In this document: piece after piece, positions 8,554 through 8,849 of the stretch | How positions within the stretch are numbered: the first letter of the stretch is position 1 | Layout: each line of letters begins with the position of its first letter | Source: Octopus vulgaris | Lineage: Eukaryota | NCBI GenBank assembly: GCA_951406725.2 | Contig: OX597842.1 | Coordinates: 5,580,001-5,644,000, forward strand | DNA: 64,000 nt | Direction: 5' to 3' | The notes under the pieces: model-generated | Database searches by the model: none | What the model was told of the DNA's origin: nothing | Seen by the model: the letters and a program-made list of their open reading frames with translations, nothing else | Position numbers and translations under genes: made by a program

Positions 8554-8602
<49 letters not shown>

Positions 8603-8800
8603 ATCCAAACATGAAAACACAAAGAGAGAACGCAAGGACGTGGAACAAGTATAGTGTTATTGGACGCTCAGGAAAGAAGGAAAGAAGGAGGGTTTAACGT
8701 TTCGAGCGGAGCTCTTCGTCAGAAACATAGGAAAAGGAAAGATCCAGAGAAAGGAAGATGGAGGGAAAAAAATCACCAACGGTACACACATGGTCACATT

Positions 8801-8849
<49 letters not shown>

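Follow-up and report, generated by a model that had tools for sequence, protein, structure and literature searches.

Genomic context of the hammerhead-bearing repeats

We analysed a 64,000-nucleotide stretch of the Octopus vulgaris genome (contig OX597842.1, positions 5,580,001 to 5,644,000 of the forward strand; hereafter the window). It contains plus-strand exons of a two-LIM-domain cysteine- and glycine-rich gene, which we take to be of the CSRP/muscle LIM type, and six copies of ~200-bp repeats that carry a hammerhead ribozyme motif or its decayed remains (Table 1). The best-preserved copy (8599-8804) lies between pure (TA)n tracts in an intron of the LIM gene.

Other features were recorded alongside these repeats, including a 5S rRNA copy, a tRNA-like sequence, a mariner-type transposase remnant, and three tandem arrays, two of which derive from one SINE-like repeat. 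A ~170-bp palindromic element in (TA)n may be the inverted end of a retroelement or resemble a MITE. The plus strand also carries a further hammerhead-like motif, unrelated to these repeats, with CUGAUGA, a branched stem II (AGGG/CCCU), GAAA, and AUUGGU C, the last of which may be a palindrome in decay, along with a stem I that has decayed; it probably represents another Penelope-like element (PLE) family.

Table 1 Coordinates of the repeats, their hammerhead motifs, and neighbouring features in the window
Feature	Positions	Strand	Remarks
Family A copy, best preserved (8 CpG), ~206 bp	8599..8804	-	Pure (TA)n on both sides; antisense in intron of plus-strand LIM-domain (CSRP-like) gene
Minimal type-I hammerhead of 8599-8804	8692..8726	-	Stem I GUUU/AAAC; core CUGACGA; extra A; stem II GAGC-UCC-GCUC; GAA; palindromic A-C-G-U; H17=U; predicted cut between 8696 and 8695
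(TA)22	8555..8598	.	At 3' end (hammerhead strand) of 8599-8804 element; presumed target
(TA)n	8805..8845	.	At 5' end of 8599-8804 element
Family A copy	47474..47672	-	77% identity to 8599-8804 and both ends shared; decayed hammerhead at 47574-47608
Family B copy	19138..19332	-	TA on both sides; centre of 83-bp inverted repeat
Hammerhead of 19138-19332	19234..19271	-	A6C; stem III ACAU, palindrome broken by CpG-type change
Family B copy	24028..24203	-	3' end lost in N gap 23928-24027
Hammerhead of 24028-24203	24092..24129	-	A6U; ACGU intact
Family B copy	17022..17165	-	Another repeat truncates its 3' part
Hammerhead of 17022-17165	17063..17098	-	A6U; stem III AUGU (wobble palindrome)
Family B copy, old (sixth)	35870..36046	-	Hammerhead core decayed; no TA flanks
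LIM-gene exons	~4600; 14418-14560; ~16080-16160; ~17340-17440; ~19850-19911	+	Two LIM domains, cysteine- and glycine-rich
AT-rich inverted repeat, 83 bp	~19031-19113 and ~19336-19415		Family B copy 19138 in its TA centre
Palindromic element, ~170 bp	19557-19726		In (TA)n; arms 75% complementary; single copy in window
Second hammerhead-like motif	59597-59657	+	Unit starts after TA tract near 59465
Mariner-type transposase remnant	7875-8388	+	
5S rRNA copy	257-375	-	
tRNA-like sequence	42774-42891	-	
Tandem arrays of 144-151-bp units	9430-11558; 12895-13305; 27330-28743		Hammerhead in none; first two derive from one SINE-like repeat

Two related, abundant repeat families

The original prediction placed five hammerhead motifs on the minus strand, and all five were located at those positions with the stem II GAGC/GCUC, the loops UCC, AUAG, and GUAG, and the stem I pairs that had been described. 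A strict scan for minimal type-I hammerheads (CUGHNGA, an optional extra base, stem II of at least 4 bp, GAAA, 2 nt, UH, and stem I of at least 3 bp) returned four sites in the window (8692, 17063, 19234, and 24092), and none of 200 block-wise dinucleotide shuffles yielded any such site. The copy at 47574, rightly described as mutated, fails the scan because of G12A, G16.2A, and a G at position 17. The five copies counted earlier in 64 kb become six with the decayed copy at 35870-36046, which had been missed and was recovered with BLAST and nhmmer; beyond these six, nhmmer found no match below E 0.4 over the window. A hammerhead was absent among the 150 listed of 332 Rfam matches.

These copies had been taken for a single family. 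Their identities instead divide them into two related ~200-bp repeat families, with 77% identity within family A (two copies), 60-86% within family B (four copies), and 49-59% between A and B. The 3' halves of the two families align above all 300 shuffles, and the hammerhead motif is their best-conserved shared block. All six copies have the minus-strand orientation (two-sided p 0.03); three of them lie in introns of the LIM gene, antisense to it. Other repeats in the window are split 13/9, 11/10, and 11/3 between strands; given these splits and the unrelated hammerhead-like motif on the plus strand, we do not claim selection against sense copies.

To place family A beyond the window, public runs were aligned to 8583-8822 at 80% likeness, comprising three contig runs (X1; X17, a second organism; and X4, treated as DNA though perhaps RNA) and one raw-read run (X23). 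Matching contigs numbered 18,726 in X1, 16,648 in X17, and 289 in X4, so that the abundance proposed for the ribozyme-bearing repeat holds for family A, which occurs on thousands of contigs in X1 and X17. Summed contig depth does not equal copy count; a rough calculation from a summed depth of 5.5 million, allowing ~45 as the depth of one locus and an overlap of 31-fold, would put the floor near 4,000 copies. At odds with the contig counts, only 1 read of 12.9 million in X23 matched family A, possibly because reads resembling repeats or human sequence were silently filtered out, or because the label covers another organism. We also observed an internally deleted form of family A that has lost the hammerhead and kept both ends (joints 8609 to 8765 in X1 and X17, and 8611 to 8766 in X4), at a depth roughly that of a single locus.

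Anatomy and variation of the ribozyme

The hammerhead core (CUGANGA...GAAA...NUH, with stems I and II) is complete in the 8692 copy, and the copies at 17063, 19234, and 24092 deviate from it only at A6; the core has decayed at 47574 and in the sixth copy. An extra nucleotide between A9 and G10.1, together with a G10.1-C11.1 pair, is present in all five reported copies, and the G-C pair in five of the six that were aligned. The stem III palindrome reads ACGU in two of the five reported copies, AUGU in one, and ACAU (a CpG-type decay) in two. The 8692 motif leaves no space for a hairpin stem III, and its self-complementary ACGU can pair only with another copy.

Covariation in stem I had been presented as a feature of the family. 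It is clear mainly at one pair, 2.4:1.4 (C-G in three copies, and G-C, A-U, and U-G), and is thinner overall than implied. The three inner U-A pairs of stem I are invariant, apart from the decayed copy, where some are broken; in stem II, no compensatory change was seen among the six aligned copies. Overall, pairing is kept in 87% of cells of the six-copy alignment, a value as high in 5 of 500 shuffles, and two pairs changed on both sides, a number as high in 39 of 500. Nearest-neighbour folding energies, which leave out core contacts, did not give the active double hammerhead as the minimum-energy dimer in any of the five copies (-5.7 vs -22.5 kcal/mol for 8692). Within the whole element, the predicted probability of stem II was 0.33 for 8599-8804 and 0.02 for 19138-19332.

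Variants of the family A motif were counted at 5% or more of family A depth, in alignments that favour conserved stretches. At this threshold no variant was seen at C3, G5, A6, G8, A9, the extra A, the 5' arm of stem II, A13, A14, A15.1, or U16.1. U4C made up 36% (X1), 37% (X17), and 73% (X4) of the depth, and position 17 had C or A besides U, while G did not reach the threshold. Additional variants included N7, CpG-type changes at 11.1, 12, and 16.2 (the last from G to A, 4-8% of depth), and smaller ones at 11.4 and in loop II. In stem I, a change at 1.4 retained wobble pairing and A1.2U (10% in X1) went uncompensated, in contigs whose variants are unphased as to pairing partners. All four family B copies carry A6U or A6C. 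U4C has been reported to cut in vitro activity while still permitting viroid infectivity, and low activity has been reported for A6C in a phage hammerhead. The spread of U4C and of A6U or A6C would fit a ribozyme that is slow, assisted, or dispensable.

The scarcity of independent compensatory changes, the weak predicted folding of stem II, and the lower activity reported for U4C and A6C in other hammerheads would all suit an unrelated repeat in which the hammerhead-like motif is accidental or non-functional. We consider this extremely improbable: no shuffle reproduced a site, the motif is the best-conserved part of two families that are otherwise far apart in sequence, and four traits outside the core consensus agree with the pattern known from PLEs.

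Comparison with Penelope-like elements

Minimal hammerheads of PLEs have been reported at thousands per metazoan genome, mostly as single motifs that probably come from truncated PLEs; as monomers they do not cleave, and as dimers only to a low extent (Cervera and de la Pena 2014, PMC4209133). Their consensus in Fig. S3 of that study (a U-rich flank, CUGANGAH G...C GAAAN, the palindrome, and NUH) fits the 8692 copy, which, judged by its letters, shows every trait listed there for PLE minimal hammerheads. Specifically, the window copies share with the minimal hammerheads described from the terminal repeats (pLTRs) of metazoan PLEs the type-I topology, a stem I of 4-5 bp, the extra base between A9 and G10.1, the G10.1-C11.1 pair, a palindromic 15.2-16.2, NUH, a U-rich 5' flank, and a mostly single, dispersed occurrence with several families per genome. 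Their stem II has 4 bp, as in the coral example of PMC4209133, in contrast to the 7-8 bp reported for Schistosoma, and A6U or A6C in family B and U4C in much of family A fall outside the CUGANGAH consensus. No cephalopod was seen in the text of Table S1 and Fig. S3 of that study examined here.

In the ribozyme, there is a likeness to the Neptune pLTR of the coral Acropora digitifera (PMC4209133 Table S1, Fig. S3) and to a metagenome locus (L031, from the DNA of another animal), both of which share CUGACGAA, G(A/G)GC-loop-GCUC, and GAAA-CG-U with the window copies. An exact stem-I-anchored pattern had no match in metagenome and viral contigs. With a looser hammerhead pattern, 108 loci emerged from about 6 of the 64 parts of the metagenome collection, many of the GC-rich ones being chance matches, and 17 of the 108 fitted the two-nucleotide minimal form; BLAST of these loci against the window copies gave no match of 40 bp or more. 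Frames were considered only in loci of at least 1 kb and a GC content of at most 0.47, among which motif flags picked out none and L031 was chosen by eye. In L031, the same stem II and ACGU stand ~90 nt past the end of a Neptune-type frame, and the motif is one base off the published Acropora digitifera Neptune hammerhead. The frame is decayed; it has a CX4CXXC linker and, in degenerate form, a GIY-YIG motif. Pfam alone gave no match for it; its Atlas look-alikes are eukaryotic GIY-YIG/HTH_animal clusters (0.95-0.96), in which 11-21% of members carry GIY-YIG and 15-29% carry HTH_animal. The end of an L031-type frame is kept in 3 of the 108 loci (L031, L035, and L095), and the remaining copies that align are either short fragments or inverted ones. 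Many metagenome loci (L001, L002, L020, and L052 among them) belong to another abundant hammerhead family with a longer stem II (GAGCAC/GUGCUC) and the palindrome ACAUGU, which forms inverted pairs in L002 and L052 and a tandem pair in L013, as expected of PLE ends.

Outside the ribozyme, the Acropora and L031 sequences have no clear homology with the window copies, to which no frame is attached in the window. Homology of family B to Neptune-type loci outside the hammerhead was absent (168 and 278 of 300 shuffles as high), and that of family A was marginal (6 and 13 of 300). Because of this, the Neptune label is given only by analogy, and the architecture of L031 is a property of Neptune-type pLTRs elsewhere, to which we infer that families A and B belong. 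Among 141 frames picked from the 330 listed, a Pfam search found no reverse transcriptase or GIY-YIG domain near the copies, and returned a mariner-type transposase and a LIM domain. Likewise, a tblastn search of the window with L031 had no match below E 0.7.

The Anolis Poseidon element PAc, which belongs to another clade, serves as a mechanistic model. PAc was reported to nick AT-rich DNA and to prime reverse transcription in vitro; its hammerhead cuts only with protein present, and ribozyme mutations leave insertion in vitro unaffected (Frangieh et al. 2024, PMC11167929). The PAc reading frame is described as starting inside the hammerhead. A comparable start in the family A hammerhead was considered and dropped, since most of the family A depth has C at position 7 and thus no AUG.

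PLEs are already known to be abundant in the octopus, making up 6.83% of the genome (190 families) in an annotation of Octopus vulgaris in which ribozymes are not mentioned, and a squid genome paper tabulates 235 Rfam hammerhead-1 matches without analysis. We found no paper describing such minimal hammerheads in cephalopod PLEs in the open-licence literature. Naiad PLEs, which occur in cephalopods and target (TA)n, the presumed target of the window units as well, are described as lacking canonical hammerheads, with only remnants in cephalopods (Craig et al. 2021, PMC8557442), whereas the window units include a complete minimal hammerhead. What is new here are families A and B themselves and the frequency of their core variants; the families may already sit in the Octopus vulgaris repeat library, Repbase, or Dfam.

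Insertion sites and element ends

The copies had been described as lying in or beside (TA)n, with TA on both sides of two of them. The latter is confirmed for 8599-8804 and 19138-19332; the general statement applies strictly to three of the six copies, the third being 24028-24203, which has TA on its readable side and the N gap on the other. A TA tract of at least 4 units lies within 10 bp of 5 of the 11 determinable ends, compared with a 5% background (binomial p about 1e-4). In the contig runs, the depth of the TA flank reached 95% (X1), 82% (X17), and 88% (X4) of that of the family A 3' end. Insertion bias toward microsatellites is reported for both Neptune and Naiad PLEs (Craig et al. 2021, PMC8557442), so the (TA)n bias of the window ends and of family A depth agrees with the Neptune clade and is a trait also found outside it.

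The predicted cut falls in the middle of the element, with 109 nt on its 5' side and 97 nt on its 3' side, which indicates that self-cleavage did not set the ends of the inserted unit. This bears on the idea that the copies are dispersed monomers of a non-LTR retrozyme, i.e., of tandem units that are cleaved, circularised, and reinserted. Such retrozymes are, like the window units, short, non-coding, furnished with a type-I hammerhead, and probably both derived from and mobilised by PLEs (PMC7229834; bioRxiv 10.64898/2026.07.22.740005); their reported monomers are of similar size (220-240 bp in coral) and also occur dispersed. However, they are defined by tandem units, and those described by Cervera and de la Pena in 2020 have canonical type-I hammerheads, whereas the window copies are single and minimal, and no tandem head-to-tail array of hammerhead units is present in the window. 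Nor was an abundant head-to-tail joint seen among the joints listed for the contig runs, where one element end is masked. Given the minimal motif, the lack of tandem arrays in the window, and ends that lie away from the cut site, we regard retrozyme monomers as very unlikely.

The ends also count toward a different proposal, namely that the units are self-standing non-autonomous elements, in which an RNA of fixed length (~200 nt) from pLTR-only (or short tandem) masters would be inserted into (TA)n by PLE protein acting in trans, much as in a PLE-dependent SINE. Both ends are common to the two family A copies, and the 5' start of all six copies lies 56-78 nt upstream of stem I, so that a dedicated non-autonomous family is possible. 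The thousands of matching contigs had no common extension beyond the family A ends (shares of 0, 0.03, and 0 in X1, X17, and X4, among the loose ends listed, each of at most 30 letters, with a further 387 outside the listing), the internally deleted form keeps both ends in X1 and X17 (with a similar one in X4), and both non-autonomous pLTR-forming elements in Chlamys and pLTR-derived retrozymes have been reported. On the other hand, solo pLTRs of an autonomous element would look identical, and the ~10-fold fall in family A contig depth toward the 5' end, which is cut by the repeat filter, fits some truncation as well as divergence of the 8599-8804 copy. On sequence evidence of this kind, we hold the SINE-like proposal to be possible, if rather unlikely.

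Solo terminal repeats as the favoured explanation

Taken together, the ~200-bp units display minimal hammerhead anatomy, shared ends, high abundance, and a TA bias, and they are probably solo pLTRs of two related Penelope-like families, likely of the Neptune type. The original prediction, of non-autonomous, microsatellite-targeting retroelements or solo pLTRs, is borne out in part; its minimal type-I hammerhead, palindromic stem III, and abundant, TA-biased repeat stand, and the covariation on which it leaned is thinner than implied. Several observations count against solo pLTRs: no PLE reading frame is linked to family A or B in the window frames examined or the loose ends listed, homology to Neptune-type loci does not extend clearly beyond the hammerhead, Pfam does not recognise the L031 frame, the 5' starts are more uniform than random 5' truncation gives, the raw-read count of X23 is at odds with the contig counts, and the active dimer is not the minimum-energy form.

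As solo pLTRs, the units would depend on an autonomous PLE elsewhere in the genome for reverse transcriptase and GIY-YIG endonuclease. The endonuclease would nick (TA)n or AT-rich DNA, and target-primed reverse transcription at the nick would copy the RNA's pLTR portion, so that the insert consists of a pLTR alone; an identical product could arise if two pLTRs recombined. The hammerhead would then belong to the parent element, with stem III able to form only through ACGU pairing with a second copy, as might be available in tandem PLE transcripts, or with the help of PLE protein. Lone copies have no such partner, and the three in the LIM gene are antisense; they are thus probably inert, and most likely decaying at CpGs.

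A further reading joins the SINE-like proposal with the core variants. PLE-dependent, pLTR-only units may have amplified themselves to thousands in (TA)n, with successful subfamilies carrying the attenuating U4C or A6U/A6C and the hammerhead retained either to cut slowly under a protein switch or as a structure serving PLE protein for recognition and dimerisation. These subfamilies would preserve stem II, the palindrome, and a position 17 other than G. We consider this joint reading unlikely. If it were true, the units would offer a natural, high-copy test of the purpose of PLE hammerheads, with variants that CUGANGA descriptors miss.

With solo pLTRs as the favoured explanation, two abundant repeat families would be identified as PLE terminal repeats, which is of value mainly for annotation, and family B would slip past standard hammerhead descriptors. 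Beyond annotation, the natural core variants, present in high copy number, may serve as test material for the role of hammerheads in PLEs.
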